From sequence record PQ310662.1: a stretch of 64,000 bases of DNA; one strand, written 5' to 3'. The position numbers and the translations under genes are program-made. Of this stretch, positions 1-46,600 are shown piece by piece. A model generated the notes under the pieces. That model had not been told where the DNA came from, searched no databases, and saw only the letters and a program-made list of their open reading frames with translations. Each line of letters begins with the position of its first letter. Position 1 is the stretch's first letter. The stretch comes from Escherichia phage Mimir124.

Positions 1-86
1 GTGGCTAGGGCTACACCCTTACACTCAACCATCCCCCCCGGTATGTTGACGGTGTAGCCACTACCCTACCCCACCTTACACGTTAC

Positions 87-101
87 ACATGCTCCGCATG
101 T
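87..101 (+). promoter_or_regulatory. Candidate N4-type virion-RNAP early promoter hairpin (stem ACATGC/GCATGT, loop TCC)
   Basis: 6-bp stem with 3-nt loop TCC and inner GC-TCC-GC core, 43 bp upstream of ORF 144; same core recurs at 736 and 4908. Confidence 0.45.
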
Positions 102-143
102 TATGGACATGTCGTCCTATCATCAACTATTGGAGCTATCATC

Positions 144-407
144 ATGACTACTACCGCTTCTGTACGTATGACCGCAGGAACTTTACTTGGTACTGTTAAC
201 TCAGCTGCTACTACTGTTGCAGATACCTTCGGTACTGCAACTAAAGCAGTAGGTATGCTTAATTCATATGTTAGTACTATGGCAGAGAAACAGGCCATCC
301 GTACTAAATTAGAAATGCATACCTTTGTTAATAAACTGGCAGAGGAAACAGCTATGAACGAGACTCTGCGTAAGAAAAGTATCGAAGATTTCTGCAAGGA
401 TTTCTGA
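144..407 (+). CDS. hypothetical early protein (87 aa)
   Basis: ORF with GGAG 9 nt upstream of ATG; followed by a terminator at 476. Confidence 0.5.
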   Translation: MTTTASVRMTAGTLLGTVNSAATTVADTFGTATKAVGMLNSYVSTMAEKQAIRTKLEMHTFVNKLAEETAMNETLRKKSIEDFCKDF

Positions 408-475
408 GAACGCTCGTATCTATAACGCAGAATATTCAAAAGTAATTGACATCCTGACTAAAGACTAAGTCACCT

Positions 476-503
476 AGGAGACTCTTCGGAGTCTCCTGTT
501 TTG
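476..503 (+). terminator. rho-independent terminator
   Basis: aggagactc-ttcg-gagtctcct followed by gtttt. Confidence 0.65.
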
Positions 504-556
504 AACATTAGATAGATAGTCAAAAGTAGATAACTATCTACTTTAGGAGAAGTAAA

Positions 557-730
557 ATGTCCCTGACAGGTTGCAAATCAGATAGTCCTCAGGAAGCTTT
601 GGAAAGATTTGAAGAAGCACTGCGTAATAAGATTTATTCAGATACTTACTATCTAGATTCTACTGAACAAGAGAATAAGTATCAGAAAGCTAAGGCTGAA
701 TTACTAATCTGGTTGTCTTACATTCCTTAA
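557..730 (+). CDS. small hypothetical protein (57 aa, below track cutoff)
   Basis: ATG at 557 preceded by AGGAG (545-549); open to TAA at 728-730. Confidence 0.4.
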   Translation: MSLTGCKSDSPQEALERFEEALRNKIYSDTYYLDSTEQENKYQKAKAELLIWLSYIP

Positions 731-735
731 AAACC

Positions 736-752
736 AAGACGCTCCGCGTCTT
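736..752 (+). promoter_or_regulatory. Candidate N4-type virion-RNAP early promoter hairpin (stem AAGACGC/GCGTCTT, loop TCC)
   Basis: 7-bp stem, 3-nt TCC loop, GC-TCC-GC core; upstream of ORF starting at 859. Confidence 0.45.
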
Positions 753-858
753 ACGGATGATGTAAATGCATCCACTAATCATTGAACTTTTATCCCTTTG
801 TTTGGGTGTTCTCACCGACGAGTTCACCCGTAAATCACATAAATCTGGAGAGTACAAA

Positions 859-1239
859 ATGTCTATTCAAAAATTCACTTTCGGTCAATCTAACGCTGCT
901 GCTACCACTGCTAAAGCTGATAAGCCTAAGGCTCAGTTCTGGCTGAACATTGGTTATGTAGCTAATGAAGGCTCTGAAGAAGAGAAGTTCATCTCTCTGC
1001 CTACCGGTATTCCACTGGATACTCAGGAGCCACTGCCTACTAATAGCAGCAATGCTGACTTCCGTGCTATGCGTTGCGCACAGAATGACTTGCTGGAACA
1101 GTTAATCCAATATGCTCAGAACCTGGAACCAGGTGAAGAAGGTATCATTAACCTGCAAGTTCAGCTTCGTCGTGTGAAAGCAGAGGCTGCTGACATCCCA
1201 GCAGACGAGAATAAATATGCTCGTAAACTGACTTTCTAA
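859..1239 (+). CDS. hypothetical early protein (126 aa)
   Basis: Internal ATG at 859 with GGAG 7 nt upstream (MSIQKFTF...); track ORF begins at 766 but lacks an RBS. Confidence 0.5.
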
Positions 1240-1249
1240 TCAACCACTA

Positions 1250-1277
1250 GACTCCCTTCGGGGAGTCTTTTATTTTT
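1250..1277 (+). terminator. rho-independent terminator
   Basis: gactccc-ttcg-gggagtc followed by ttttattttt. Confidence 0.65.
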
Positions 1278-1382
1278 AACTAGACGATAAGCTATTTCTA
1301 CTTTTTGAGTATCTTTAGACGAAGGGTACTGAAACAGTAACTCAATAGATATAGATTTATATTAGATGAAGGAGTAACCATT

Positions 1383-1568
1383 ATGCGTACAGTATGTAAC
1401 CGTTATAACTCGCAGAAGTTGATTGTTACGTTACAACCATGGGGCAGTAAGATGTCACTAAATGCTCGTTGGCAGGTATCTGTAAAAGATGAGAATGGTC
1501 ACTGCTATGACCACTTCTTTGTAGCTAAACCTACTCGTAAACAAATCCGTAAACTTCATAAGGTGTAA
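1383..1568 (+). CDS. hypothetical small protein (61 aa)
   Basis: ORF with GGAG upstream; tightly spaced with the next ORF. Confidence 0.4.
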   Translation: MRTVCNRYNSQKLIVTLQPWGSKMSLNARWQVSVKDENGHCYDHFFVAKPTRKQIRKLHKV

Positions 1569-1572
1569 GACT

Positions 1573-1791
1573 ATGTTGGACTTCATTGCGTTTGTAATAC
1601 TCTGTTATGTGCTATATCGCCTACGTGGTTACATTCTTAATGGAGCCAAGTGGGTAATTACTAAATTGATACTTATCTGTAAGTTACCGGTTGTATTCGT
1701 CAAGTGTCTGTTTGTTTCTCTCGTAGCTAAAGAGGTACGTAAGCAACTATGGGCTAAAGAAGCAGAAGACTATGCTAAGAGGAACCAGTGA
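1573..1791 (+). CDS. hypothetical small membrane protein (72 aa)
   Basis: Hydrophobic N-terminal half (FIAFVILCYVLY...); stop overlaps next small ORF start. Confidence 0.4.
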   Translation: MLDFIAFVILCYVLYRLRGYILNGAKWVITKLILICKLPVVFVKCLFVSLVAKEVRKQLWAKEAEDYAKRNQ

Positions 1792-2216
1792 TGAATTATT
1801 CAGAATTGTGGCTTAAGTTCTATGAAGATTGGCTTGGTGCTGTATCAGGTAGACGCACCGAAGGTGACGTGAACCGGGCAAAGGAATTTGCAGATAAATG
1901 TATAAAGTCACTGAAGGAATCAGATGATGTTCACTGACATAGAATCTGCTATTGAAGAAGCTATGTATCGTATGACCAGTGGTCCTCAGATAAGACACTA
2001 TGGTCTGGTACAGAAAGGTCACCTTATTGCTGTACGTATTGTACGTAACAGTAACCATCAACGTTTTATGTGGACAACTAAATCATGCGTAAATCATTAA
2101 TCATGGGTACCAAAGAAGACGTTCAAAAGATGAAAGAGCGTCTGGCTGCAAAGAAAAAGACATCTGAACCAGTACGTAAGATTGTTACTTTCAATCATCC
2201 ATGTATCAAATAACAA

Positions 2217-2250
2217 GGAGTCCTCCATTAGGAGGGCTTCTATTTTTTAT
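2217..2250 (+). terminator. rho-independent terminator
   Basis: ggagtcctcc-atta-ggagggcttc hairpin followed by tattttttat. Confidence 0.55.
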
Positions 2251-2291
2251 TCTTGAATAGTTAGATATGTATTTAAATAGGAGAAATTATC

Positions 2292-2600
2292 TTGAATGAA
2301 ATTGTTTGTATACTTCCTCATTCAGCTAAGATAGCTGACCGGAATATACGTATTCACCTACCATTCCCATTAAGTAATCCATTCACTCGTAATGAAAGAA
2401 CCACGGTAGAAGATGTAGAGGTAGCTTATGAAGCTTACCTTCGTAATCGTCTTATTGGTGGTGACAAGCTAATTACAGCAGAGATGGAAAGGATTGCATC
2501 CTTTGTAACAGATAGTACAGGTAAACCAGTAGGCTTAATTGGTACTGAATCTGATGTAAATGTTATTCGTAAAATATTACTGGAGGCTTTAAGCCAATGA
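2292..2600 (+). CDS. hypothetical protein (TTG start in track; true start uncertain)
   Basis: Track ORF begins at a TTG codon; stop overlaps the next ORF start. Confidence 0.3.
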   Translation: MNEIVCILPHSAKIADRNIRIHLPFPLSNPFTRNERTTVEDVEVAYEAYLRNRLIGGDKLITAEMERIASFVTDSTGKPVGLIGTESDVNVIRKILLEALSQ

Positions 2601-2818
2601 TGTATTCAACTGATTATGGTGTTTGCCCTATATGTAACAAACGTAAAGGAGTTGCTAATCATAAGAAGTGTAGTCGTATTCTACAGAAACAAAGGAACAA
2701 AGAAGAATGGGATAGGATACTGAATAATCAGTATAAAGAAGAGAAACAACAGATGGCTGTTAAAGCCTCCACTCAACGTATTCGCCGTATTAACTATATA
2801 CAGGGTTATCAGAAATGA
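2597..2818 (+). CDS. hypothetical protein with Cys-pair motif (CPICNKRK...HKKC)
   Basis: 73-aa ORF; 4-bp overlap with neighbours on both sides (translational coupling). Confidence 0.4.
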   Translation: MMYSTDYGVCPICNKRKGVANHKKCSRILQKQRNKEEWDRILNNQYKEEKQQMAVKASTQRIRRINYIQGYQK

Positions 2819-3171
2819 AACTGATTGTGGCTGGTGGAAGAGACTTCGTAAATACCCAAGTAATGATTACAGTATTAATGGATTTAGTGGAGAAGGGTAA
2901 GATTGACCCTAATCCCGAATTGGTATGTGGCATGGCTCGTGGTGCTGATATGCTTGCATACAGCCTATGGGCTAACCACAATATGAAAATCCATACATTC
3001 CCGGCAGATTGGAAAACTCACCCAAGAAGTGCTGGATATATTCGAAATGCAGAAATGGGTAATTTTGCAGATGTACTTGTTGCCTTCTGGGATGGTAAAT
3101 CCAGAGGAACCAAGCACATGATTGATATCATGCAGAGGCTAAATAAACCTGTATACATCGTGAGGTACTAA
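2815..3171 (+). CDS. SLOG/DprA-like Rossmann-fold protein (DUF2493-like)
   Basis: VAGGRDF...GMARGADMLAY resembles the GG.R / G.ARG.D signature of DprA/Smf-YpsA-type SLOG domains; recalled, not searched. Confidence 0.4.
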   Translation: MKLIVAGGRDFVNTQVMITVLMDLVEKGKIDPNPELVCGMARGADMLAYSLWANHNMKIHTFPADWKTHPRSAGYIRNAEMGNFADVLVAFWDGKSRGTKHMIDIMQRLNKPVYIVRY

Positions 3172-3426
3172 ATGATTATTACATATCCTACAGGCAAAAA
3201 TGTGGAATATATGGGTCATACTATCCAAGTACCACATTGGGTTAAGTATATAGCGTTGTATACTCGACAGTATAAGAGTGCTAATACCTCCTTAATAGGA
3301 TTCTCTAAGAAGCCTAAGCTAACAGAAAACAATATCTGGGTATCCTCTGGGAGACAAGAAGAGATTGGTTTCTGTGATTTGAGTATTGTTGATAATAACA
3401 TCTATGGGACATTGAAAAAGGTATGA
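3172..3426 (+). CDS. hypothetical protein
   Basis: 84-aa ORF in a coupled gene array. Confidence 0.35.
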   Translation: MIITYPTGKNVEYMGHTIQVPHWVKYIALYTRQYKSANTSLIGFSKKPKLTENNIWVSSGRQEEIGFCDLSIVDNNIYGTLKKV

Positions 3427-3737
3427 AAACTATTCTAGTAGTTCATGATTCTACATTTACCGATGTAGATAAGATGATGCGTAATATTGATTATGTATCT
3501 CAGACAAGCCAAGCATTCAATGAAGAGTTTACTCTGTACTGTAATGCTGAATCTCCACTGGTTCCTATCCTTAAGGAATCAGGTCTACCTTTCTCTACAG
3601 AGAACTTCCCGGAAGAACCAGACTATGTAATCTCTTTTATCTATGACTTACATGATGGTTCTGAAACCAGTGAATTAGCTATGAACCAGTGGCGTAGTAA
3701 ACGTCCTGTGTTCGCATTTCAGGTATTAAAACCATGA
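3423..3737 (+). CDS. hypothetical protein
   Basis: 104-aa ORF; 4-bp overlaps with neighbours. Confidence 0.4.
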   Translation: MKTILVVHDSTFTDVDKMMRNIDYVSQTSQAFNEEFTLYCNAESPLVPILKESGLPFSTENFPEEPDYVISFIYDLHDGSETSELAMNQWRSKRPVFAFQVLKP

Positions 3738-4114
3738 AGACTATCTCATTAGGTGATGACACCAATGCTTTAATAGGTGTATCTGCACGTCCAATTAGCA
3801 TTGTTAATAAACATCACGGTAAATCCGGTGAGTATATTGGGCGTGGTTCACCATTAGGCAATCCATTCGTCATTGGTAAACATGGAACCAGAGAGCAAGT
3901 AATTGCTAAGTATAAAGTCTGGCTGCAAGAACAGATTGATAAGGGTAATCCAGTTGTATTGGATGAACTTAATCGTCTTGGTAATAAAGCTATTGATGAG
4001 AAAGGATTAGCCTTACAGTGCTTCTGTTATCCGAAGCCATGTCATGGTGAGGTTATTAAAGAGAAGCTAGTGAAAGCTATGTACAAATATTTTGTGGAGA
4101 ATCCTAATGGATAA
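3734..4114 (+). CDS. DUF4326-family protein
   Basis: YIGRGSPLGNPF...GTREQVIAKYKVWL...CFCYPKPCHG matches the DUF4326 signature as I recall it. Confidence 0.5.
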   Translation: MKTISLGDDTNALIGVSARPISIVNKHHGKSGEYIGRGSPLGNPFVIGKHGTREQVIAKYKVWLQEQIDKGNPVVLDELNRLGNKAIDEKGLALQCFCYPKPCHGEVIKEKLVKAMYKYFVENPNG

Positions 4115-4292
4115 GCAATGCAAATGTGGCAAAGGTTATGTATCCCAATGGGATGGTAAATGTGGTCATTGCCGAACCAAGAAAGAACAACGTGACCATG
4201 AATATGCTCTTACTTATTTAGAAGTAACCCGTCAATACAACAATATGACCACACACGATGCTTATATTTATAATAGAGAGGCTTGTAAATGA
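4107..4292 (+). CDS. small Cys4 zinc-ribbon protein
   Basis: MDKQCKCGKGYVSQWDGKCGHCRTKK: two CxC/CxxC pairs; start moved to ATG at 4107. Confidence 0.4.
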   Translation: MDKQCKCGKGYVSQWDGKCGHCRTKKEQRDHEYALTYLEVTRQYNNMTTHDAYIYNREACK

Positions 4293-4639
4293 AAGAAATC
4301 TTAGTATTCACTACCAATTTACTTGGGCAGCATAATAATGCTGCTGCCAAATTAGCATATAAGAAGCATGGTGCTCGCTGGGGTATGGCCTATGGTCATT
4401 ATGGTAATAGCTTTGCCATTCCAGTAAAGGATGGTTATGGTAACCGGATTAAAGAGGGTGCTATCTATGGCTTCATTGAAGGTTTCATTGCCTATGCATC
4501 TTCTAATCCACAATGGGATTTTAAAGTCATGAATAATGACTATCTGGACCCATACCAATTCATTAACGTAACTGGAAATGTACTGTTACCAGAAGTATGG
4601 CGTAAACACTTAGGCGATGCTTACAACTACTGGAGTTAA
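4289..4639 (+). CDS. hypothetical protein (116 aa)
   Basis: ORF with GMAYGHYGNSFAIP motif; family not recognised. Confidence 0.4.
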   Translation: MKEILVFTTNLLGQHNNAAAKLAYKKHGARWGMAYGHYGNSFAIPVKDGYGNRIKEGAIYGFIEGFIAYASSNPQWDFKVMNNDYLDPYQFINVTGNVLLPEVWRKHLGDAYNYWS

Positions 4640-4641
4640 TA

Positions 4642-4902
4642 ATGACTTATGAAGAATTATGGTCTGCTCAAGTCAGAGCCAGAGCACTTACACGGCATGA
4701 CATCTATTGTGCGTTACAAAACGAACTAAAAGGTCGTACTAAGTTAGGCCACATATCAGGTTTTGTTAATATACCTATGCGTAGTCTGGTGTGGCCTTAT
4801 AAAGAAAAAAGTAATGAATTTAACGGTAATGGTTTATATGTACGTATCAACTACCTTGGCCAAGAGAACAACATTCGTATTGCCTTTTGGACTAAGCGTT
4901 AG
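4642..4902 (+). CDS. hypothetical protein (86 aa)
   Basis: ORF immediately after preceding stop. Confidence 0.4.
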   Translation: MTYEELWSAQVRARALTRHDIYCALQNELKGRTKLGHISGFVNIPMRSLVWPYKEKSNEFNGNGLYVRINYLGQENNIRIAFWTKR

Positions 4903-4907
4903 GTAAT

Positions 4908-4922
4908 AGCTGCTCCGCAGCT
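4908..4922 (+). promoter_or_regulatory. Candidate N4-type virion-RNAP early promoter hairpin (stem AGCTGC/GCAGCT, loop TCC)
   Basis: 6-bp stem, TCC loop, followed by TT then AGGAG and ATG at 4937. Confidence 0.45.
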
Positions 4923-4936
4923 TTAGGAGATTAACT

Positions 4937-5191
4937 ATGGATACAACTGCTGTAAGCATTGGGGAGATTGTAAAAAGAAAACATGAATTAAAATGGAGAG
5001 ATTATCATCTATTAAAACATCTTATTCGTATGACTGTTTCAAGTCCTGCTCTCCAATATTCAGAAGTAAGTGAAATAGGGGCAAGATTATCGATGTTTAC
5101 CCATAGAGAGGTCGTATCAAAGAGTATATTTATAAGCTGCTACTTCGATAAAAGTATTGGCAAATATGAATTCAATTGTTTTATTGAATAA
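4937..5191 (+). CDS. hypothetical early protein (84 aa)
   Basis: ORF with AGGAG RBS directly downstream of hairpin at 4908. Confidence 0.45.
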   Translation: MDTTAVSIGEIVKRKHELKWRDYHLLKHLIRMTVSSPALQYSEVSEIGARLSMFTHREVVSKSIFISCYFDKSIGKYEFNCFIE

Positions 5192-5214
5192 ACTAATTTA
5201 TTAGGAGATATGCG

Positions 5215-6030
5215 ATGTACTCATCAATAGAACATCAGAAGCAACTCGAAGTACTATTCAATAAAAATCAATTACTGCCTCGCATGAGGAAGGAATTCGA
5301 GGACTCCAAAGAAATTGACTTTAAGGCATTCGCTGCCTATTTAGAAATAGATTATAAGCTGCTCATTGATGCAATGGTGCAGATTGCCCTACATAAACGT
5401 GCTGATATCCAGACTATGATTGGCTCTCTCATGAGCCACTCAGATGATGCTCAGTACATCGCTGACTGTCTGTATAAGATGGCAGAGAATGACTGCTTCA
5501 ACTATGACCCTACTATAGACAAGTTCGGTGTTATCTATGAGATTAGTGAAGATGTTCAGATGGAACTGGAAGCATTCCAGTATCCATTGCCTATCGTAAG
5601 TGCTCCTAATCCTGTTAGAACTAACCGGGATACCGGTTATTACCAGACTAAAGGAAGCATTATCCTCAAGAAGAACCATCATGAGATGGACGTCTGCCTT
5701 GACCACATCAACCGTATGAACAATCAACGTCTCTGTATTAACTGGGACGTTGCCAACTATGTAAAAGACTCCCGTCCTAACATGGATAAACCCAAAGATG
5801 GTGAAACCCGTCAGGACTATGAGAAACGAGTTAAAGCCTTTGAGAAGTACAGTCGTACTGCTAAGGAAGTAATGGAGTTAGTGACTCAGGAAGGTAATAA
5901 CTTCTCACTAGCGCATCGTTACGACAAACGAGGCCGCACGTACTGTGCTGGATACCATATATCCTACCAAGGCACTTCATATAACAAAGCTGTCATTGAA
6001 TTTGCCGATAAAGAACTAGTAGAGGACTAA
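5215..6030 (+). CDS. T7-like single-subunit RNA polymerase, N-terminal subunit (N4 RNAP II small-subunit-like)
   Basis: RYDKRGRTYCAGYHISYQG resembles the T7 RNAP D.RGR.Y region; 271 aa; followed by the second RNAP part at 6555. Confidence 0.7.
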   Translation: MYSSIEHQKQLEVLFNKNQLLPRMRKEFEDSKEIDFKAFAAYLEIDYKLLIDAMVQIALHKRADIQTMIGSLMSHSDDAQYIADCLYKMAENDCFNYDPTIDKFGVIYEISEDVQMELEAFQYPLPIVSAPNPVRTNRDTGYYQTKGSIILKKNHHEMDVCLDHINRMNNQRLCINWDVANYVKDSRPNMDKPKDGETRQDYEKRVKAFEKYSRTAKEVMELVTQEGNNFSLAHRYDKRGRTYCAGYHISYQGTSYNKAVIEFADKELVED

Positions 6031-6536
6031 TGAAACCAACTCAAGCAGAGTTGATGGAACTACTCGACTATGACCCAGTGAATGGAACATTTCATTGGAC
6101 TCATAGTCCATTGGTGTACATCAACGTAAGAGGTAAGGAGACTGGCCTAACAGGCTCCAGAGGACATCGCAAGATTGTCATTAATAAGCAAGATTACAAA
6201 GCTCACCATGTGGCTTGGTGCATAATGACTGGCGTATGGCCTGAACAAGTTGACCACAATGATACGAACCGAGCTAATAATCGCTGGGATAATCTACGTG
6301 AGGCAACCCACACACAGAACATGCGCAATAGAACCATGAGCAAGAATAACACTTCTGGATTTAAGGGTGTTCGTATGCGTAATGGTAAGTATCTGGCGCA
6401 GATACAGGTTAATGGCTCTAAAGTAGAATTAGGATCATTTAGTGACCCTGTAGAAGCCGCTAAAGCCTATGATGCCGCTGCAATCAAATACTTTGGTGAG
6501 TTCGCCAAAACAAATAAAGAACTTAACAACTACTAA
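6030..6536 (+). CDS. HNH homing endonuclease with AP2-like DNA-binding domain
   Basis: VDHNDTNRANNRWDNLREATHTQN (HNH) plus SGFKGV...AAKAYDAAAIKYFGEFA (AP2-like); ATG overlaps the stop of the preceding RNAP subunit. Confidence 0.75.
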   Translation: MKPTQAELMELLDYDPVNGTFHWTHSPLVYINVRGKETGLTGSRGHRKIVINKQDYKAHHVAWCIMTGVWPEQVDHNDTNRANNRWDNLREATHTQNMRNRTMSKNNTSGFKGVRMRNGKYLAQIQVNGSKVELGSFSDPVEAAKAYDAAAIKYFGEFAKTNKELNNY

Positions 6537-6554
6537 TCCACTAATGCGAGCCAA

Positions 6555-7799
6555 ATGGCTCAAGACGCTAAGGAATATAGAATGCAACTGTTAACTGCCC
6601 GTGAATACCTGAAAGTAGATATCGCTAATAACTATGGCTTAGATAAGAAGACATGGGATGAACGTATTAGCTGGTTCGATGAGAACGAAACTAACCTGCT
6701 CAATCTGGTAGATGAAGCAGAAGAATCTGCACTGTTCTATGCTGGTGTAAATGCATGGAATGATATGAAAGCAGGTAAGCCTATCGGGTATGCTGTAGCT
6801 CTGGATGCTACATCATCTGGCTTGCAATTACTGGCCTGCCTGACTGGTGACCGCTCTGCTGCTGAACTGTGTAACGTAGTTAACTACATGGGAGAGAATG
6901 GTAAGCCATTACGTCGTGATGCTTATACAGTCATCTATCACAAGATGCTGGACATCCTTGGTGAAGCATCTCGTATTAAACGTAGTGACACTAAGCAGGC
7001 TGTTATGACTGCATTCTACGGTTCTGAAGCCAAACCTAAAGAAGTATTCGGTGAGGGTATTCGTCTCAAGACTTTTGAGAATGTAATGGAAACTGTTGCT
7101 AGTGGTCCTTGGGCACTTAACAAGTTCTTACTGCAATGTGGTAACCCGGATGCCAACCGTTACGTATGGATACTGCCTGACAACTTCCACGCTGTCATTA
7201 AGGTAATGGTTCCTGAAGTACAGACTGTTAACTTCTTAGGTAAGCCATTCGACATCACTCGTATGGTTCAGGGTACTGAAGAAAAGACTCGTATGCTCTC
7301 TGCTAACATCACCCACTCTATTGATGGGATGGTGGTACGTGAGATGCTGCGTCGTTGTAACTTCGACCGTGACTTAGTGGAAGCTGTGCGAGAACTCTGT
7401 GATGAAGGTCCATCAGAATATGGGGAAATTGCAGGTAACCTGGAGAAAGTACAAGAGCTATGGAGCCATTATGAGAAATCTGGCTTCTTATCTTTATCTA
7501 TCCTGGATTATCTTGACCCATGTACTATTGCTTATGTAGACCGTCAGGTAGTGGCAGATATGATTGACACTTTGCCTAAGAAACCTTTCCCTGTAATGAC
7601 TGTGCATGACTGCTTCCGTTGCCATCCTAACTACGGTAATGACCTGCGTCGTCAATACAACCAGATTCTGTCTGACATTGCTAAGAGCGACCTATTGGGA
7701 TTCATCTTGTCTCAGGTACTGGGTCAAGAGTTCTCTGCTGGTAAGCTGGATGACAGCCTCTGGCAGGACATTCTTGAAACAGACTATGCATTAAGTTAA
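6555..7799 (+). CDS. T7-like RNA polymerase, catalytic subunit (N4 RNAP II large-subunit-like)
   Basis: [25 protein letters not shown] parallels T7 [29 protein letters not shown] motif-C-like; 414 aa. Confidence 0.75.
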   Translation: [414 protein letters not shown]

Positions 7800-7806
7800 T
7801 AAACTA

Positions 7807-7841
7807 GCCTCATTCCTTCGGGAATGGGGCTTTTATTTTTT
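7807..7841 (+). terminator. rho-independent terminator
   Basis: gcctcattcc-ttcg-ggaatggggc followed by ttttatttttt. Confidence 0.65.
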
Positions 7842-7843
7842 CT

Positions 7844-8041
7844 TTGGAGGTAGCAACTATGCTAATCACTTTTGAAGTAATCTTTCAGTTAATACTGATA
7901 GTTTTATCTATACTGGCTCTGGCTACGATAGTTCGTGCCCACAAGTCTAAGTTTGCTTACTGCTACTATGGGGCATACTCACTTGGCTGCTTTGTAATGG
8001 CAGGATGGATAGCTTTTGCTCTCTACTGTGTAATCAACTAA
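7844..8041 (+). CDS. small membrane protein (65 aa)
   Basis: Two hydrophobic segments; flanked by terminators at 7807 and 8041. Confidence 0.35.
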   Translation: MEVATMLITFEVIFQLILIVLSILALATIVRAHKSKFAYCYYGAYSLGCFVMAGWIAFALYCVIN

Positions 8042-8068
8042 CCCACCACTAGGTGGGTTTATTTTTTT
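8041..8068 (+). terminator. rho-independent terminator
   Basis: acccacc-acta-ggtgggt followed by ttatttttttac. Confidence 0.6.
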
Positions 8069-8115
8069 ACATGTCATGTATACTAACCCAGCTATTTACT
8101 TATGAGGAAATTGAT

Positions 8116-8949
8116 ATGCCAACTTTGAAAGTAAGTTTTAACAAAACCACTAATGTCGCAACTGTACTGGATGCCAGTGGTTCTATTCCAGGTGGTTCCG
8201 TAGAAGTAGGAACCTTTGTACACCCGGATGCCACTTACCCTGATAGCTTAGTTATCTATCACGGTGTACGTGATCTGCTGTATAGACGCTCTGCTAAAAA
8301 CCCAGCTGAAGCAGGCTTCTGGCCTGACAACATCGTGGATATGCAGGCCATCTCTATTGATATGAAAGCTACTCCACGACTGACTATTGCTACCAAACTG
8401 CCTCGTGTAGTCTCTGCTATCGAAGGTGAAGACATCAACTGGCACATTGATGTAGCAGGTGGTAAAGCACCATTTACTTATAAATGGCAGTTCAAAGCAA
8501 ATACTGCTGGTGCAGCATTCGCTGATATTAGCTCCAGTACTAACCCATCTGCTGCTACTGCAACACTGACTATTAATGGTGTAACAGCTGCTTCTGCTGG
8601 TACTTATAAAGTGATTGTTACTGATGCTAATGGAACCACTGTAGAAGATGAGTCGCTACTGGCTGTAGGCTATTATGAAGCAAGTTCACTAGTAGCTACA
8701 CCTGCTTCACTGTCTCTGTCTGTTGCTGCTGATACTACCGATGGTAAGAACGTAACAATTGCTGCTATACCTGTTGGTTCATCTGCTGGTACTTTGTCTA
8801 TTAAGACTGCTCCGGATTCCGGTCGTGCTACAGCTACCATTTCTGGTAACGTACTGACGGTTAAACCAGTGGCTGCTGGTAAAGCTACTTCTGTTGTAGT
8901 TACAAATGGTACTGTTGATGTAACCATCGCTATTACTGTTGCAGAATAA
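8116..8949 (+). CDS. Ig-like domain protein (N4 gp17 capsid-decoration-like by position)
   Basis: Thr/Ala/Val-rich beta-strand repeats (TATLTINGVTAASAGTYKVIVTDANG); start set to ATG 8116 with AGGAAA upstream; sits just after RNAP II. Confidence 0.5.
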   Translation: MPTLKVSFNKTTNVATVLDASGSIPGGSVEVGTFVHPDATYPDSLVIYHGVRDLLYRRSAKNPAEAGFWPDNIVDMQAISIDMKATPRLTIATKLPRVVSAIEGEDINWHIDVAGGKAPFTYKWQFKANTAGAAFADISSSTNPSAATATLTINGVTAASAGTYKVIVTDANGTTVEDESLLAVGYYEASSLVATPASLSLSVAADTTDGKNVTIAAIPVGSSAGTLSIKTAPDSGRATATISGNVLTVKPVAAGKATSVVVTNGTVDVTIAITVAE

Positions 8950-8999
8950 GGGTATCCCTTATTTGGGGTTATAAACTCTGAGATAAAACCCTCAAGTTT

Positions 9000-9030
9000 G
9001 ACCTCCCTATTGAAGGGAGGTCTTTTTTTT
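9000..9030 (+). terminator. rho-independent terminator
   Basis: gacctccc-tattgaa-gggaggtc followed by tttttttt. Confidence 0.7.
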
Positions 9031-37646: not shown

Positions 37647-40600
37647 TTAATTTACCAGGTTCATCCAAGGGTTAAGGTTGTGAGCACGAAGCCCCTGACC
37701 AAAGCCCCATGAGTAATCCAGACTACCCTTAGCAGCAATGCTAAAGATGTTGTCCTGAATAGGTAAGCCAACGTTACCAAACATGGTAGGAGTTGGAGCC
37801 AACATAGCCATAGCAGCATGCACTGGGTTATTACGAATCATGGACACTGCAACTTTTGCAGAACGAATCTTAAAGTTGTAGAACCACATTAAACCAACAC
37901 TTTCCATATACCCACGGAAGCGACCAGGTAAACGATCATAGTTAATGAACTCTTCCGTTACACGTCCTAGTGCTTCTTCACGAGTCTTACCTTTACGCTG
38001 GGTCAATTCATCATAGATGATTGCTTTAGCGATAAAGTCAGAGTACTCAACGGTCTTCTGGATACCCTGGAATAAAGCAGTATCCTTAGTGATAAGTGCA
38101 TAACGTCCGGCAGTACGTACTGACTTAGGTAGCTTATCTGCCAATTTACTCATGTACTCTTGAAGTTTACCTTCGGTAATAAGGATGTCATCACGACCGA
38201 TACCAGCGTCTGCAATTGAAGAGAACTCACCAGCTTCTAACAGAGGCCAGATACTCATACGCTTATGGCTATCAGTAATGGACTGAATCTCAGCCTTAAG
38301 TTTACGAATCTGGTTCGGGTTAGTAGCTGCACGTAATTCTGCTTCTGCATCTACCTGACGCAGACGAGACTTCAGGTACTGGTTAATCTCAGCAGTTTTC
38401 TGTGGAATGCTCTTAGCAATGTTCTTAACCGGTACGCCACGGGCAACCATCTGGTAAAGGTTAGCCAAGAAGTTAACAGCAGGTACGACTACTGACTTAA
38501 CTACAATCAGAGTCTTGGCTTCTTTAACTAAGTTCTGAACCAGGTTCTCACCACCCATAGTGTACTTATAAGCACGGTTGCCAAATACACCCAGCATAGC
38601 TTTCTTGAAGGTATCCAGGGTTTCCGGGGACCAACGAGAATTACCAGACCAGGCATCACCAACAGAAGCTGCACGATAACCAAGTGCATCATTCAGCATG
38701 TCACGACGCACCCACAGTTCGCCATCACCAAACAGGCTTTCTGCTTTCCGTCGAGTTTCACTGTTCATCAGCTTAAGTGCATCAGCAGTTACTGGGTCCA
38801 GTTTAGAACCAAGAAGGTTCACATACTGGGACTTGTTAGAGGCAGACATCTTTATGTCGTTCTCATACATACTATGCAGGTTCTCAATCAGCATATCGTT
38901 GAAACGCTGTGCCTTAGCCTCTTCCACCTGACGCCCACGCCATACACCAATTGCACGTGCAAGATGGTTCTCACCTTCAATATGCTTCAGCATGTTAGGG
39001 TCAATGGATTGCTCATAAGCAACTACATTACCTTTATCATCATATACAGGCAGGAGTGGTTCATTACCACGTTCACCACGAGCCAGTGCTTTAGTGATAC
39101 GGTCTACGGAAGGCTTGTCAGTGATACGACCTGCTACCATGGAACCCATCGTAAAGCCTGTACCCAGGTCTACACCACCAGCAGTATTACGAACGTTCTG
39201 TAGGATACCCTGTGAGAATGGAGCCTGTGCCTGTACTGGTGCAAAGTAATAACTACGTGCCGGACCACGGTTAGCAGAACTACCTTGATAAGTACCCAGA
39301 CGTACATAGGACTTCTCAATCAAATCAGCAAACTGACTATCTTCAGCAACAATCAGATTAACGCCCTGTTTAGTCTCACTAGGGATATGCCCTTTGTACT
39401 GGTTCAGGGTTGCACGCATATCAGATTTGGCTTTAGCCATTTCATCTTTACGCTGACCAACCAGATAAGAAGTAGCAAAGTCCATTCCCTCAACTTCTGA
39501 TTGAGCCAGTGAAGATAACATCTCACGGTCGGACTTATTCATTGCTTCCAGTGCATACAGGGTAATCAGTTTATCCAGTTGAGCTACATCTACAGTAGAA
39601 CGAGCAGCCTGACGTTCACCCAGCATACGAGAGATTGCAGTAGCATTACGCAGCAGGTTATTACCGACTGTACCATTAATCATGTACTGAGCCAGTTGCT
39701 TAGATTTACGACTAATAAGAGGCCAGTTACGACCAGCTTGTTTTTGCAAATCTGCTTCCAGCTTATTCACTTCACGGTCAACAATCTTCTGGTCAGTCAG
39801 CAGGTCACGGATTTCAGCCAGAGACATAGTGTCACGCAGAACAGCTAAGTCAGTTTTACCCATACCAGTGTGCATTGCTTTCCACTCATCTTTAGTCAGC
39901 TTACGGCTGAACTTAGATGCGATAGTGGTGGGCAGGTGTTCACGAAATTGTTGACGGTCTGCTTGTACCTGTGCACGAACTGCTTTAATTAAATCATATA
40001 CAGAAGCATTACTCTTAGTACGACCAGTTAGGTCATTAACTAAGTCATGGAAAGGTTGCCATACCTTGCCTTGGTTCATTGCAGCCATAACACCTTCAGC
40101 TACGATTACACCATTCTTCTCTGTAGCAATGGCAGCTACCAGTTGTGCAGCATGAGCAGCACCTTTAACCAACGGGTTCTTGGTATTAGCTGCAACTTCA
40201 CGAGCACTTTCTAAAGCACGGGTGGACAGTGCATCAATAGAATCCACCAGATACTGGTTAGCACGGTCGATAGCATTACCACTAGGTATAGCAACGGAAT
40301 CATAAAATGACTGTGCATTGAGGCTGGTCTGCATGATTGTCTGAGCCAGTGCATCCGTCCCTTCCTGCACATTGGTGGCTTTGGTATCACCTGTTACACG
40401 AGCATTCAGGCTAGACATTGCAGCAGTACCGATGTTAGTCAGCATTGCATCAATGGTATTACCAGATTTCTTATCTGCTTTCATAACAGGAATGTTAGCC
40501 AGTACATTACGTACTTCTTCACTAACCATTGCCAGACCAACAAAGGTAGGCAATAAGGAAGAACGACCCTGTGCATCAAACTCAATGTTGTTAGCACCCA

Positions 40601-43600
40601 TGATGGTATCAAACTTCTGTTGAGCATAGTAACGGTCAGCAGGGTTAGTGCTATCAGGGTCAGCCATGAATGCTTCAACGGTCAGGTTCTTAGTGACGTG
40701 TGCGTAGTATTCCTGTGCACGAGAAAGAGCAGCCGGACTAATAGCAGCTTCAGTAGCCAAAGCAGCAACAATGTTAGTGAACAGTCGCTGTTCCTGCATA
40801 TTCATAGTGAAGCCATGAGCCTGAACATCACGAGTTACTTTAGTTGCATTCACTACTGCATCAGAGAACTTACCCTTACGAATTACTTGCTGTACCGGTT
40901 CTGAACCAATGTAGTTAGTAATCAGCTTATCAAAGGTCTGCCCCAACTCTTCCAGACGGGTATTGTCACCGTATGCTTTGTTATGGAACAGAGTAGTGTC
41001 TTTGGCTACAGCAGCAGTAGGAGCCTGCCCACGCATAACTACAGAAGAGTTAAACAGTAAGCCAGAGAACATATCATCTGCGTTAGCAGGGGCTTTCTTA
41101 CGACCAAATACCAGACGTTTGATTGCTTCATATACAGCCTGAACCATGGCCTTAAGTGCAGTGGTTTTCTTCTGCTTACCAATCAATTCACGGTTGGTTA
41201 AACCCCATGCCATGTACTCATTCAGTGCAGCAGCTTTAGCCATTGCTGGTTCAATAAAGCCATTAGACAAGTGACCATTAATGGTATTGAGTGCATCAGC
41301 ATATGCTTCACGTACTGCCGGGGATTCATCCTTAACATCCAGAGTACGGAACTGGTTCATCAGGTCTTCAATATTCTGGACTGCTTCATTAGAAGTACCT
41401 TCATAGTGAGCCAGTACAGATTCAAAAGTAGAAGCATGTACCAATTCATGAACCAGAGTCTCTAAGGAAGGAGTAACTAAGTAGATGGTCTTATCTTCAA
41501 AGTTAGTCCAGCCATATGCATTACCAGCTTCAGCAGCTTCAATATCTTCCGGTGCTGGGCGAGTAATGTTCTTCTCAATAGCATAAGCATCCAGTTGAGC
41601 AGGAGTACCATAAACAACCTTGTAGTCTTTAGCAGCAAGGGATTTCTGTACTTCTTTCAATACTGCTTGCTGTTCTGGGGACATCTCTTTAGCCAGCTTA
41701 GTGATAGCAGTATTGGACAGCAGACGTACACCGGACTTCAGTACACGACCTACCTTCTCCATTGCTGGTACTTCTTTCACTGGTTCTGCTTTAGCAGCAC
41801 GTACTGCATCACGACGCTTATTTAATTCAGCATCAAACAGCTCGTTCAGCTTAGCTACTTGTTGGTCTACAGTCAGACCTTCCAGAGAAATTTTACCGTT
41901 GTTCACATAAGGAGCACCTACAGCAGCCATCTGGTCAACAGTAGTCTGTACCTGGTTCATTACTTTGTGGCGAATATCTACACCCAGAGCAATGTTACGC
42001 AGATTACGTTCAATCTGTTCAGCACCAATACGTAACAGGTCATCAGTAGCACCTTCACGTTGGTCATATTCCAGAGCAGATTTAGCGATAGCCTGTTTGG
42101 TTTCATCAGACAGTTTGCTGAAGTCTACGTTCTTCATGAACTTAGCGAAGGAGTCATAAACATTCTTGATAGGGTTTCCTTGCCAAGAAGTATATACAGC
42201 CTCGTTAGCTTTACGACTTGCATCAGTAATGTCATTAATACCAATGTTCATACCATCAAAGATTTTCAGGGTATTCTTCGGAGCACCCTTCATAGTAGAA
42301 AGAGTCTGCATCATCATGCCATCACCAGTACCGATGGTCATAAATGGAATACCTGCAACACCTGCCTGTGAAGGAGCATAGATGCTCATTGGCACACGCA
42401 TACGGTCATCTAAGTTGGTAGCCAGTACTTGGTTAGCAACATCAGTGTTCTCACTACCAGCAATGTAGAAAGTCTGTGAGCCAGTCTCAATCATTGGAGC
42501 CAGCGGAGATAAGCTATTCTGAATTTCATTCAGTTCTTTCTGCGTTAAGAAATCACCTTTCTTCCATGTTGAGTCTTTTTCTTTTTCTGCAAGTTTAGCC
42601 TGTACTGCCTGTTGGAACATATCCTGCAATACCAGAGACTGAATCTGGGTAGCCTTCTGTAAGTTCTCAGTAGAATGCATCAGACCTTCACCAACAGTAT
42701 TTCGAATACCAGTACGCATTGGTTCAACGAACAGGTGAAGCATGTTCTCTTGTAAGTTCTTCAGGGCATTACCAGATACAGTAAACTTCTGTGGGTCTAA
42801 CTTACCAGTCAGAGCACCTTCTACCTGCTGAATAGATAACTCACCCTTACGCATAACTGGAACATTGCCAGTCAGTGCTTCCATAGAAGTAAGGAAAGTA
42901 TCCAGCATAGCCTGAGCATCAGCCTCAGATGCAGCCTCCTTACCAAACATTGCCATAGCCGGGGAAATACTAGGGTCAGCAGCACGAGCTTGCAGAACGT
43001 CGCTGAAGCGTTCGTAGATGGTATCAGTAATTGCACTAACCATCTTGCCAGCAATACCACGAGCACCAGAACCATAGATGGTAATGGTTAGTGGGTTTTT
43101 AGCGATACCACGTTTCAGGTCCAGTGTACCGTCTTCATTCAGGTTAAAGTCTTTGATGAACAGGTCCATTAACTTCTGGAGATGATTCATCTGGCTCATA
43201 ACAGGAACGTTGTTACGGTAAGTACTACGTAATTCACCAAGTGCTTGTTGCAGACCATTAGTAGATGCTTCATACAGGTCAACACTGTCATCCTGTGAGC
43301 GATGCTCGTTCATAGTCTTACCAGCTTTACCGAAGAACAAACCACCCTTAGCAGTATTCTTAATCCAGTCTGGAGTGAACTTACCACCGGTCATTAATAC
43401 CATTGCGTTGATTGGGCCATTGGTTACACCATCAGCTTCAACGTACAGTGGGGTATTAAAATTGGCACGGTCATCGCTATTCAGGTAACGGGCATATTCC
43501 ATCAGAGCCATGAGAGCTACGAATGATTTATCACCACCCAAAGAGGTCTTAAGAATATCCACTGCATCAACTGGTAAGTAACCAGACTTATCAAACTCAA

Positions 43601-46600
43601 CCATCATATCAACAGCAGGTTTCAGGTTACCTTCCAGAGCTTTGGTCAGCTTTTCAGACATAGCTTCACGGGACATGTTATGTACCTTGATGCCTAATGC
43701 CTGAGCCAGACCTAACTGAAAGTCAGAGAACGCTTGGCTGTTTTCATTACTCAAGTCAATAGTAGAGAAGGTTGGCAGAATTGCTTCACGAACCAGCTTA
43801 CTGGATTGTGGGTTATTCTTACCAAGCATCTGCATACGACCTACACGGGTCATGTTGTAACCATAGTGAATAGGAGTATCCAGTCCATTCTCCTGTTCCT
43901 GAACCTGATTGATTACCCCAAACAAGGAATCGTATGCCATAGACACGGACAGGTTCTTACATTCCAATGATTTAGCAGTGTTTACGTTCAGTAGTTCAGG
44001 ATTAATCGTACCAGCACCCATCAGTTCCAGAATGTTGTCACGACCCAATGCTTCATAGAAATTAACCATCGGCATGTGTACACGGAACTCAGTAGCCTGT
44101 TCTGCTTTAAGAGCAGCTTTCTGTTCTGGAGTATTCTTGACAGCCGGGTTACGTAACTGAGTTTGAGCCACGGAAGGAATATCATCCCCGAAGTACATTT
44201 TCTCTTCCGGTTCTACGAGGACAGCTTCCTCAATAGCAGTAGGGAAATTGTTAATGGCATCGTTATCATCCAGCTTCTCAATGGTGTACAGACCTACAGT
44301 CTTATTGGAGGCTGGGTCAATTTCAGACACATCCAGCATAGACTCTTTAACTTCACCCATCTCAATAAAGGAAGACAGAATCTCTGTAGCCATTGCCATT
44401 GGGATACCCTTGGTATAACCCAGTGGTGCATTAGGATTACGATTCAAACCCCAATAGGATTCAATCTTTTGAGCCAGTGAGTTAGTAGCTTCAACCAGGG
44501 TCTGAGCATTCTCGAAGTCAGCCAGAATACCTTCAGGTAACAGGGATGCTTCTACACCAGTAATAGCAGCTACATCTTTCATGTCTTTAATGGCAGCATT
44601 CTGTGTAGCAGTCAGTCGCCATTGCAAACCAGCAAGTACAGCAGTCTCTAGCAACTGGTCATTGAACTTAAAGGTGTCACCATCCTTCTCAACGATATTC
44701 AGCAGTTTACCACCCACCCAACGGTTAGCTTCAGTACCTTCTGCAAAACGTTTACCAACATTCTTGTTAGCAAGGAACTTAGCTAGACGGTCAGAAAGAG
44801 TAGTCTTCAGGGTTTCACCAAAATCAAACAAGTCCTGATAACGCTTAATCACATCACTTGTGAGAGCGTTATTTTCTTTTTGAGTAAATGCTTCAAAACG
44901 AGCAACAGAAGACAGTGCTTTCTTAACATCAGTCAAAGGAGACTCAGAACCAATGGTACGAGACTTAGGTTCTTCCGGTAGGGTAAATGCTTTCAGGAAC
45001 TGGTTCGGTGTCTTTTCATTGTTATAGACAGGGAACACTGTTTCCATTTCTGTTTTGGTTTCGACTACTTCCTGGGTAGTATCTACTGTTTCAGACTTAG
45101 TAGTAGAGACTTCTTCTGTTTTTGGGCTAGTCTCCATAGTAGGAGCAGTCTTATTTTCTACCACTGGTTTAGCTTTAGGCTGTACAGTAGTAGTGTCCTC
45201 TTGCACTGGTGCAGGAGTTTCATCAACCTGATTCACTGGTTCATTGGTCTGTTGGGATTGAGCAGCGTCAAGATTGCCCTGACGGAACTCTTTAACTACC
45301 TGGGCAGCAGGCTTGTCCAGACGTGAATCCAATGGGGTAACTTTCACATGAGAAACATTAAGCTCCGGGTAAGCCGTAGCAAGTGCGTTAGCAATATCAG
45401 CTACGGTTTTGGCCTCCAGTCCTACTTGCTGGGCAAACTTAACAGACTTGGTATCGTAAGGATTGACACCGAGTCCAGTACGACTACGTACCCATTCACG
45501 GGAAGGCGAGAGAGCCTGATAATGAACAGACTTATTCTTATCCGCATTCCCAGAAATCAGATGCTCATTCAACGCTCCGACCTTATTCTGCATGTGCTGG
45601 GCGAACTTCATAAAGTCGCTCAGATAAGCGGAGGCCAAATCGAAGTTACCAGAGTTATACGCAGAACGAATGCGTTTCGCATGTTGCAACGCAGAGTACT
45701 GTCCTTCGTTAGAACGAGACTCATCGGTTTTAATTTGTTTACTAACAATGTCTTGAGGACGTAAGCCCAGTTCTTCTGCTTTAGCGTCGAACTCACGTGC
45801 ACCCTGTAACAAGGCAGCAGCAGATTGCAGGGCAGCACGTTGATGATTCCCCAGTGTAATCTTACCTTCACTTGCATGTTTCAGAACCATGTTCACTGAA
45901 TCTGCATCCAGTACTTCTGGGGATACATCAGCAGCCATAGCAATGTTGTTTGCTTGGGCTTGATTAGCTTCTTCAGTAGCTTTCAGCTTACCTGCTTCAG
46001 CCTGTTCCTGAATCATGGAATGGATAGCACGGTATGCACGGAGTACTTTAGGTGTATTCTGTACGTTAGCCATCAGGCCAGAGAACTGGTCTACGATAGT
46101 AGCAGCAGGGGAACCTTGTTCCAGATTAGCCAGAGCACCTGGGTCACGGTTAATGAAGCTATCCATAGACATAATGTTGTCATACATCTGGATTGCAGCT
46201 TCCATTTGAACGTTAGGATCTTCAGCAGTATTAACCAGGTCAGCCATCTTCTGAATAGCTTCTACACGGTTAGTGGAACCAGAAACAGCTTCACGGATTA
46301 CCAGGTTAGCTTGTTCCAACTCTACTGGGTCGAACTTCATTGCCTGAGTTAAGTCAGCAGCATACTGAGTAGCAGCAGCTTTCTCTTCTGGAGTGATATC
46401 CATTGCATCTACTGCTTCCTGTACAGTTGCTTGTGCCTGCTCTGCCTGAGCAGCAGCTTCCTGTGCAGCAGCGTTAACCGTAGCATCAGCTACAGGGGAT
46501 GCTTGTTCATTACGCTTAGCAACTTCTTCCCCACGTTGAACCAGGATGTTAGTAAGAGGAGATGCAGCTTTTGCTAATGTTTTACCAACCAGAGAAGCAC

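Follow-up and report, generated by a model that had tools for sequence, protein, structure and literature searches.

Three stem-loops near the left end of the window (the whole stretch of DNA analysed, 64 kb) have a probability of roughly 0.93 of being P1, P2 and P3, the early promoters of an N4-like phage (Gamaleyavirus), read by the virion RNA polymerase (vRNAP), a single-subunit enzyme that is packaged in the particle and encoded further along on the opposite strand (Table 1). We based this on the anatomy of the sequence, statistics, orthology, covariation and the conservation of the enzyme's contact residues. Promoter function rests here on homology, and the starts are predictions from the sequence. 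The initial annotation had reported hairpins with a TCC loop at these three places and likened them to N4 virion-RNAP promoters. Our reading of the sequence agrees on the hairpins, and the N4 architecture is supported by synteny, flanking sequences, the bases read by the polymerase and the cognate enzyme.

Table 1. Predicted early promoters, associated genes and terminator-like sites, and the virion RNA polymerase, in window coordinates.
Feature	Position	Strand	Details
P1 hairpin	87-101	+	ACATGC-TCC-GCATGT, 6 bp stem; covariance-model score 32.8 bits
P1 predicted start	105-106		loop centre C94 = -11; +1/+2 = G105, G106
gp1 homologue	144-407	+	77% identical to N4 gp1; first gene of P1 unit
Terminator-like hairpin after gp1	476-503	+	AGGAGACTC-TTCG-GAGTCTCCT then GTTTTG
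P2 hairpin	736-752	+	AAGACGC-TCC-GCGTCTT, 7 bp stem; 36.7 bits
P2 predicted start	755-756		loop centre C744 = -11; +1 = G755; GG at 755-756
gp2 homologue	766-1239	+	66% identical to N4 gp2 over 161 aa; first gene of P2 unit
Terminator-like hairpin and T-run after gp2	1249-1276	+	terminator scan
P3 hairpin	4908-4922	+	AGCTGC-TCC-GCAGCT, 6 bp stem; 37.4 bits
P3 predicted start	4926-4927		loop centre C4915 = -11; +1 = G4926; GG at 4926-4927
ORF, 84 aa	4937-5191	+	first gene after P3
gp15 homologue (RNAPII small subunit)	5215-6030	+	65% identical to N4 gp15
gp16 homologue (RNAPII large subunit)	6555-7799	+	68% identical to N4 gp16
Terminator-like site after gp16 homologue	7806-7831		terminator scan
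vRNAP	37647-47996	-	3449 aa; 67% identical to N4 gp50, 72% in mini-vRNAP domain

Direct reading shows that the three hairpins are perfectly paired and intergenic. They are confined to the first 5 kb, on the plus strand only, and are co-directional with the early genes. Their stems of 6, 7 and 6 bp, each closed by three nucleotides, fall within the 5-7 bp stem and 3-nt loop that we took as a criterion. All share the coding-strand core GCTCCGC, which is GCGGAGC on the template strand; for P1, the functional element on the template would be a hairpin with a GGA loop on the minus strand. The N4 enzyme reads -11G, -10G, -8G and +1C (PMC4496689), all of which are present here at the correct spacing. 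It requires a template purine at the -11 loop centre, G at -10 and -8, and a GC-rich heptamer (PMC4496689), and P1, P2 and P3 have the required template bases at -11, -10 and -8. As judged from the sequence only, each also carries GG at the predicted +1/+2, 11 nt from the loop centre. The GCGGAGC mini-hairpin is bound by mini-vRNAP with a KD of 2 nM (PMC13037366). On the side of the enzyme, residues K114, R119, W129, K268, K849, K850, D901 and R904 are conserved relative to N4, as are the catalytic residues D559 and D951, while Asn takes the place of K267 in the beta-intercalating hairpin. The P2 template strand folds into the predicted hairpin (-6.5 kcal/mol, z -2.8), and the corresponding values for the P3 template strand are -5.7 kcal/mol and z -2.2. 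For P1, the nearest-neighbour DNA fold, whose parameters omit the extra stability of GNA mini-hairpins, favours, on either strand, a competing stem formed by CATGT and ACATG. Folding energy was dropped as support for P1 because this competing stem is the minimum-energy fold.

The window covers the leftmost 64 kb of the genome of a G7C-like coliphage (Gamaleyavirus, Schitoviridae) and begins, like N4, at the physical left end. The N4 cores are found at 93, 562 and 4551 of NC_008720, and our three sites are syntenic with them: P1 stands before the gp1 homologue, P2 before the gp2 homologue and P3 upstream of the gp15/gp16 homologues. Alignment with N4 P1-P3, proposed at the outset as a check, retrieved the corresponding hairpins and common flanks. 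P1 is orthologous to N4 P1 (NC_008720 ~88-102), and both then carry TTATGGACATG downstream. The downstream flank of P2, GGATGA..AATGCATCC, is common to N4, and the P3 stem is identical in N4, with the same six pairs and loop. The identity of N4 P2 agrees with a published template-strand oligonucleotide, ...CCAAAAGAAGCGGAGCTTC... (PMC13492108).

The genes that follow the hairpins are consistent with three early transcription units. Alignment with SP5M, L004 (72,570 bp) and N4 indicates that gp1 is cut short by an apparent 1-nt insertion near 401-403. The hairpin after gp1 is common to N4 and SP5M and is annotated as a terminator in the latter; it falls narrowly below the T-run rule of our terminator scan. 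The initial annotation had placed each hairpin 15-110 bp before an early ORF. The 110 bp given for the second hairpin assumed a start at ATG 859, whereas the conserved gp2 frame opens at ATG 766. The latter is probably the gp2 start, as the homology to N4 gp2 includes the N-terminal MHPLIIELL... extension. It lies 14 nt past the P2 hairpin and would be the 12th nucleotide of the predicted P2 transcript. In N4, gp2 is the cofactor of the middle RNA polymerase. The 84-aa ORF after P3 has no match among the N4 early proteins gp1-gp18, and the same arrangement is found in one relative (L008). For annotation, the outcome is three early transcription units with predicted starts at G105, G755 and G4926 and a probable correction of the gp2 start.

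Stem-loops in such places could instead act in RNA, as intrinsic terminators or as processing or stability hairpins of transcripts reading through from upstream. P2 and P3 each start 6 nt past the stop of an ORF (557-730 and 4642-4902, respectively), and the P2 hairpin, followed by a T-run on the minus strand, was caught by the terminator scan. But P1 has no gene upstream at all, and the stems are short with 3-nt loops. The test for Rho-independent termination (a GC-rich stem-loop plus a U-tract) found no plus-strand T-run after P1, P2 or P3: the coding strand continues as UAUGGAC after P1, ACGGAUG after P2 and UUUAGGAG after P3. Good terminators are found elsewhere, at 476-503, 1249-1268 and 2216-2241. 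A role in RNA would also leave unexplained the invariant asymmetric loop and the fixed GG 11 nt downstream. We thus consider this alternative very improbable; an RNA-level role may nevertheless be additional to promoter function.

We then turned to relatives, in a sample of 21 loci plus the window (290 kb of loci plus the window). In an unselected check, 62 of the 66 plus-strand copies of GCTCCGC had at least three extra stem pairs, and 60 of these 62 hairpin copies had GG at +1/+2. The heptamer was absent from the minus strand of the 21 loci and the window. Among 39 distinct promoter 29-mers, the 11-nt spacing from the loop centre was always kept, with GG at that place in 38. The two inner stem pairs, whose conservation had been noted in the window, are invariant in all 39. 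The next three pairs covary: double-change cells number 44, compared with 13.4 in shuffles (0/500), and the covariation score is 0.45, whereas sliding the partner column yields no more than 0.083. The percentage of pairing is partly circular, since the 29-mers had been chosen for stems of 5 bp or longer and many of their source genomes are close relatives. In N4, the conserved bases are contacted by the enzyme and the other stem bases need only pair (PMC4496689). This is the pattern found here, where only structure constrains the three outer pairs. Loop conservation had been set beforehand as a test that could refute the promoter reading: loop and core proved invariant in the relatives, and the outer stem covaries.

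The hairpins are kept at syntenic sites in every relative of the synteny comparison. Close relatives have three or four of them, and one (L007) has five if two atypical hairpins are included. A more distant relative (L019, gp1 61% identical) has one canonical hairpin in 6.5 kb. Across the coliphages of the G7C-like and N4-like groups, the N4 promoter code (a GCGGAGC template hairpin and a GG start at 11 nt from the centre of the loop) stays the same, whereas the outer stem has drifted through compensated changes.

These patterns also bear on the idea that the sites are double-stranded palindromic operators for a dimeric regulator of the phage or the host. Intergenic inverted repeats are typical operators. 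Yet the central three nucleotides are asymmetric and all 62 hairpin copies have the same orientation, with no GCTCCGC on the minus strand. The outer arms vary freely in sequence but keep their complementarity, as expected of a stem that is extruded; a protein that reads bases in the duplex would not leave this signature. Operators are in our view as improbable as a purely RNA-level role.

Within the 64 kb of the window, GCTCCGC/GCGGAGC has three occurrences and no more, in agreement with the initial annotation. The heptamer by itself is not above chance (3 found against 2.07 expected; at least 3 in 33 of 100 shuffles). When at least three further complementary pairs are required, the three observed compare with a mean of 0.037, and none of 2000 dinucleotide shuffles reaches three. 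A motif-blind test is weaker, with some heptamer core recurring at least three times in 21 of 300 shuffles. The significance comes from the motif having been fixed beforehand by N4 biochemistry, together with position, strand and conservation. Chance co-occurrence of short GC-rich palindromes, which would fit the unremarkable frequency of the heptamer and the 7% of shuffles with a recurrent core, has a negligible probability and is refuted by the shuffles of the composite motif, by the restriction of all three copies to intergenic sites on one strand in the first 5 kb, by synteny in every relative compared and by the motif counts in relatives.

Further promoters were sought in the whole window, and neither hairpin enumeration nor a covariance-model scan revealed a fourth. 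The enumeration, restricted to perfectly paired stems of 5 bp or more around a loop of three nucleotides, returned 113 hairpins, of which only P1-P3 have a TCC loop on the plus strand. TTC-loop hairpins at 24667, 38167, 42519, 58296, 60010 and 62938, and a minus-strand TCC hairpin at 61359, were rejected as promoters because they have neither the GC/GC core nor the base required at -8. With filters off, the covariance model gave three matches (33-37 bits) and a next best of 11.6 bits; as P1-P3 were in its training set, the scan says no more than that the rest of the window holds nothing similar. Host-type promoters are scarce in the early region, with 8 sigma-70-like sites in positions 1-9000 against 25 expected, which also favours the main reading.

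If P1-P3 are early promoters, this is the known N4 mechanism in an N4-related coliphage and not a new one. By analogy with N4, we infer hairpin extrusion, dependence on single-stranded DNA-binding protein (SSB) and the actual start sites. From N4 biochemistry, the left genome end would enter the cell before the rest, and negative supercoiling driven by gyrase would extrude the inverted repeats as cruciforms. Host SSB would melt the non-template arm and leave the template-strand GCGGAGC mini-hairpin intact for vRNAP to dock on. W129 and R119 would then contact -11G, K114 would contact -10G, D901 would contact -9C/-10G and R904 would contact -8G. RNA synthesis would begin with GTP-GTP opposite the CC of the template, at 11 nt from the centre of the loop. 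The P1 unit would be short, carrying gp1 and ending at the 476-503 hairpin. The P2 unit would express gp2 and the following genes, and the P3 unit the 84-aa ORF and then both subunits of the middle RNA polymerase.

The predicted 5' ends of these transcripts have features of their own. Exactly from +1 onwards, transcripts of the P1 class would form a conserved stem-loop at their 5' terminus (GGAC...GUCC), and so would those of the P2 class (GGAUG...CAUCC). Relatives show compensatory variants of the 5' stem (GGACA/UGUCC, GGGU/AUCC and GGAUUC/GAAUCC). The predicted P3 transcript begins with GGAGAUUAACUAUG. At P2 and P3, the initiating GGA(U/G) stands 7 nt before the AUG, the usual place of a Shine-Dalgarno sequence. 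It is conceivable, if rather doubtful, that these promoters are coupled to RNA fate, with the obligatory GG start of vRNAP doubling as an mRNA-stabilising 5' stem and/or as a ribosome-binding site on early messages that have almost no leader. We met no description of such a coupling in the literature, which was consulted without a dedicated search.

The closest known system is N4 itself. Its P1-P3 are likewise three in number, lie leftmost in the genome and point the same way as the early genes, before gp1, gp2 and gp15. They likewise have a 5-7 bp stem, a 3-nt loop, template -11G, -10G and -8G, and CC at +1/+2, with 7 nt from the -8 base to +1 in both phages. The two differ in several respects. 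The N4 P1 template loop is GAA, whereas all three loops are GGA here. The outer stem bases differ, with compensation, and the spacer at -1 to -4 is here something other than AAAA. Two extra ORFs are present here, one between the gp1 terminator and P2 (557-730) and one between P3 and gp15 (4937-5191).

More distant systems share part of this organization. Early hairpin promoters have been predicted in LUZ7, LIT1 and PEV2 (PMC3715699) and in the Pectobacterium phages CB1, CB3 and CB4 (PMC6027278), likewise in the early region, with a short stem, a 3-nt loop and a preference for G as start nucleotide. In LUZ7, where early promoters were mapped by ONT-cappable-seq (PMC9163698), there are nine early start sites at 13-14 bp from the hairpin centre, against three sites and a spacing of 11 here and in N4. 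The GCGGAGC core is an instance of the GCGNAGC mini-hairpin DNA of Hirao, which is unusually stable, has a sheared G:A pair and explains why the hairpin of the template strand is more stable than its complement; GCGNAGC is, however, a structural motif and not a promoter class. T7-type single-subunit RNA polymerases belong to the same family as vRNAP and likewise use a specificity loop together with a recognition element at the N terminus (PMC4496689), but T7 promoters are recognised in double-stranded form, whereas promoters of the P1-P3 type are read as single-stranded hairpins.

Three stem-loops with a TCC loop lie near the left end of the window (P1, P2 and P3, named after the early promoters of phage N4), where the initial annotation had read them directly from the sequence. 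Their core, GCTCCGC, is indeed confined to them, with 3 copies in 64 kb and no further copy on either strand. The whole window holds 113 perfect hairpins whose loop is 3 nt long and whose stem reaches 5 bp or more, and TCC loops are limited to these three. Taking the loop centre as -11, each is followed by GG at +1/+2 (105-106 for P1, 755-756 for P2 and 4926-4927 for P3). A covariance model built from an alignment of promoter 29-mers (A1) matched the same three sites only, at 33-37 bits, the next match in the window scoring 11.6 bits. Hence, there are exactly three canonical sites in this part of the genome. We also folded the template strand as DNA, with standard parameters, which lack the mini-hairpin bonus. 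The promoter hairpin is the minimum-energy structure at P2 (-6.5 kcal/mol, z -2.8) and P3 (-5.7 kcal/mol, z -2.2), while at P1 a CATGT/ACATG alternative competes with it.

Hairpins, open reading frames and terminator-like elements of the window, with the N4 counterparts of the hairpins
Feature	Coordinates	Strand	Description
P1	87-101	+	ACATGC-TCC-GCATGT, 6 bp stem, perfect, intergenic
P2	736-752	+	AAGACGC-TCC-GCGTCTT, 7 bp stem, perfect, intergenic
P3	4908-4922	+	AGCTGC-TCC-GCAGCT, 6 bp stem, perfect, intergenic
N4 hairpin 1	~88-102 of NC_008720		GTTGC-TTC-GCAAC
N4 hairpin 2	556-572 of NC_008720		AAGAAGC-TCC-GCTTCTT
N4 hairpin 3	4546-4562 of NC_008720		AAGCTGC-TCC-GCAGCTT
Terminator-like hairpin	476-503		after gp1, conserved with N4
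Terminator-like hairpin	1249-1268		after gp2
Terminator-like hairpin	2216-2241		after the block following gp2
Terminator-like hairpin	7806-7831		after gp16
84-aa ORF	4937-5191		between P3 and the gp15 homologue
168-aa ORF	6030-6536		between the gp15 and gp16 homologues
vRNAP homologue	37647-47996	-	3449-aa ORF, 67% identical to N4 gp50

The comparison with N4 P1-P3 that the initial annotation had proposed revealed matching hairpins, flanks and downstream genes. The first 9 kb of N4 (NC_008720) contain exactly three such hairpins, and the second, when reverse-complemented, gives the template-strand P2 oligonucleotide of a cryo-EM study, ...CCAAAAGAAGCGGAGCTTC... (PMC13492108). The N4 promoters all contain a GC-rich heptamer that has its centre at -11 and inverted repeats on either side (PMC4496689). 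Downstream of the hairpin, the window and N4 have in common TTATGGACATG at P1 and GGATGA..AATGCATCC at P2; at P3, the six stem pairs and the loop are identical. On the template strand, N4 P1 has a GAA loop, whereas all three window promoters have GGA. P1 is followed by a homologue of N4 gp1 (77% identical) and P2 by a homologue of gp2 (66% over 161 aa). After P3 comes the extra 84-aa ORF, then the homologues of gp15 (65%) and gp16 (68%), the two subunits of N4 RNAPII. Neither this ORF nor the 168-aa one has a counterpart among N4 gp1-gp18.

A search with the gp1 homologue retrieved 19 loci from viral contigs; N4 and a further relative, SP5M, bring these to 21, and loci and window together span 290 kb. 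In the 39 distinct 29-mers of A1 the two inner pairs are invariant and the next three covary among AT, TA, GC and CG. Cells with both sides changed number 44, against 13.4 in shuffles (0/500), and the covariation score reaches 0.45, whereas slid partners give 0.083 at most. The loops are conserved in relatives, as expected by the initial annotation, and the pattern is that of N4, where contacted bases are conserved and the others need only pair (PMC4496689). It is important to note that the paired percentage in A1 is partly circular, because only 29-mers with a stem of 5 bp or more were admitted. The unselected control is the count over all plus-strand GCTCCGC copies in the 290 kb: 62 of 66 have at least 3 additional perfect stem pairs (chance below 2%), and 60 of these 62 have GG at +1/+2. 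No copy occurs on the minus strand in the 21 loci and the window.

These patterns bear on other explanations. The hairpins could be terminators or RNA elements, but the coding strand lacks a U-tract after them and P1 has no upstream gene at all. They could also be duplex operators, but the loop is asymmetric, all copies have a single orientation and the arms covary. Chance is ruled out by the control count, by the same hairpins in N4 and relatives, and by the composite motif: GCTCCGC alone is unremarkable (3 found versus 2.07 expected in 64 kb), but with at least 3 further complementary pairs 0.037 are expected, and three were reached in none of 2000 dinucleotide-preserving shuffles. A test that does not specify the motif has less force (three or more copies of some core turn up in 7% of shuffles), so the statistical strength comes from a motif fixed beforehand by N4 biochemistry, together with position, strand and conservation.

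The number of promoters varies among relatives. Close relatives have three or four hairpin promoters each, and locus L007 has five if two atypical ones are counted. One of these has a variant core, GCTGT-TCC-ACAGC (GT-TCC-AC, closed by a T-A pair), with GG at the right distance; the other is a GCTCCGC hairpin with CG where GG would stand. The sites concerned are at 897 and 1157 (L002), 7755 and 8011 (L005), 7654 (L010/L011), 8289 (L014), 967 (L016), and 506 and 791-819 (L007). Extra copies accompany small ORFs that sit as insertions between gp1 and gp2, resembling cassettes of a promoter plus a gene. In several genomes P1 and gp1 are found at each end, which would agree with terminal repeats. 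A more distant relative (L019/L020, IMGVR_UViG_2974723488_000001; gp1 61% identical) has a single canonical GCTCCGC hairpin in its first 6.5 kb, P1; the covariance model recognised no equivalent of P2 or P3 there.

P2 does lie upstream of an early ORF, as initially annotated, but not at a distance of ~110 bp. From ATG 766 onwards the gp2 frame stays open and its protein sequence is conserved (N4 counterpart MHPILYEILTFCLGLLTD...), and the 31-aa N-terminal extension is conserved in 13 genomes. The homologue thus most likely starts at ATG 766, 14 nt from P2, its AUG being nucleotide 12 of the predicted transcript. ATG 859 has a strong GGAG site, and several relatives have the short form alone annotated. 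The predicted P3 transcript begins GGAGAUUAACUAUG, with a Shine-Dalgarno-like GGAG at its extreme 5' end. In the P3 (4926-4939) and P2 (755-768) transcripts the initiating GGAG and GGAU, respectively, are 7 nt upstream of AUG, and the GG that every start requires may also serve very short leaders as their ribosome-binding site. The predicted P1 (105-117) and P2 (755-773) transcripts form 5'-terminal stem-loops from +1, GGAC-AUGUC-GUCC and GGAUG...CAUCC; P3-class and extra promoters have none. Relatives show compensatory variants (GGACA/UGUCC, GGGU/AUCC and GGAUUC/GAAUCC, the last turning gp2 His2 into Asn), and the element may stabilise the mRNA. Within 395-480, the gp1 homologue carries a single additional T near 401-403 (GGATTTCTGAG versus GGA-TTCTGA in SP5M, N4 and L004). 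The resulting frameshift makes the ORF stop at 407, shorter than in all relatives compared, while the +1 frame goes on to a conserved C-terminus, ...ISENARIYNAEYSKVIDILTKD-stop. Either the T-run contains a sequencing error or the protein is really truncated; in N4, middle transcription is believed to require gp1.

Sigma-70-like sites are about three times rarer in 1-9000 than in shuffles (8 versus 25 +/- 5.8), which fits a region unserved by the host polymerase. A perfect 10-bp inverted repeat, AAAGTAGATA-AC-TATCTACTTT (523-544), stands just before the Shine-Dalgarno of ORF 557-730, which lies downstream of the gp1 terminator and lacks its own hairpin promoter. The corresponding place in N4, directly upstream of P2, carries a different repeat, GATAGTT-CAAT-AACTATC. 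The window is similar to N4 over the first 60 bases of each, so it begins at the physical left end or close to it. There, the inverted repeat GGCTACACC / GGTGTAGCC (9-17 and 51-59) flanks a C-run; N4 has a near-identical pair at 7-15 and 51-59. The window's repeat may relate to a genome-end function (packaging, replication or injection).

The window also encodes the expected enzyme, a homologue of vRNAP, the giant virion-packaged polymerase of N4 (gp50), 72% identical in the polymerase domain (998-2103). An offset of 997 recovers every named residue in N4 gp50; K114, R119, W129, K268, K849, K850, D901, R904 and the catalytic D559 and D951 are kept, and only K267 is altered (to Asn). N4 vRNAP reads -11A/G, -10G, -8G and +1C of the template strand: W129 stacks on -11G, and R119 contacts -11G, K114 -10G, D901 -9C/-10G and R904 -8G, while the spacer acts as a ruler that sets the start 8 nt beyond -8 (PMC4496689). 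The template core of the window promoters, GCGGAGC, belongs to the GCGNAGC mini-hairpins, which are unusually stable, and mini-vRNAP, the polymerase domain, binds GGA-loop promoters with a KD of 2 nM (PMC13037366). Orthologous positions, the bases read and the conserved enzyme residues all support the initial reading, and we predict by homology, with high confidence, that the three hairpins are vRNAP early promoters. As in N4, gyrase-driven supercoiling would extrude the hairpins, SSB would help expose the one on the template strand, and initiation would use GTP-GTP.

G7C-like coliphages (Gamaleyavirus, Enquatrovirinae, Schitoviridae) match the window at ~90-94% identity over its first 6 kb and over 24 kb of its interior, and none of the genomes listed for these two queries exceeds ~94%. 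Early start sites have been mapped in LUZ7, which independently supports a function of such hairpins in N4-like phages (PMC9163698), and their prediction is routine in papers on N4-like genomes. The three hairpins of the window belong to a promoter class that is already known, and they occupy orthologous positions in a phage closely related to N4.
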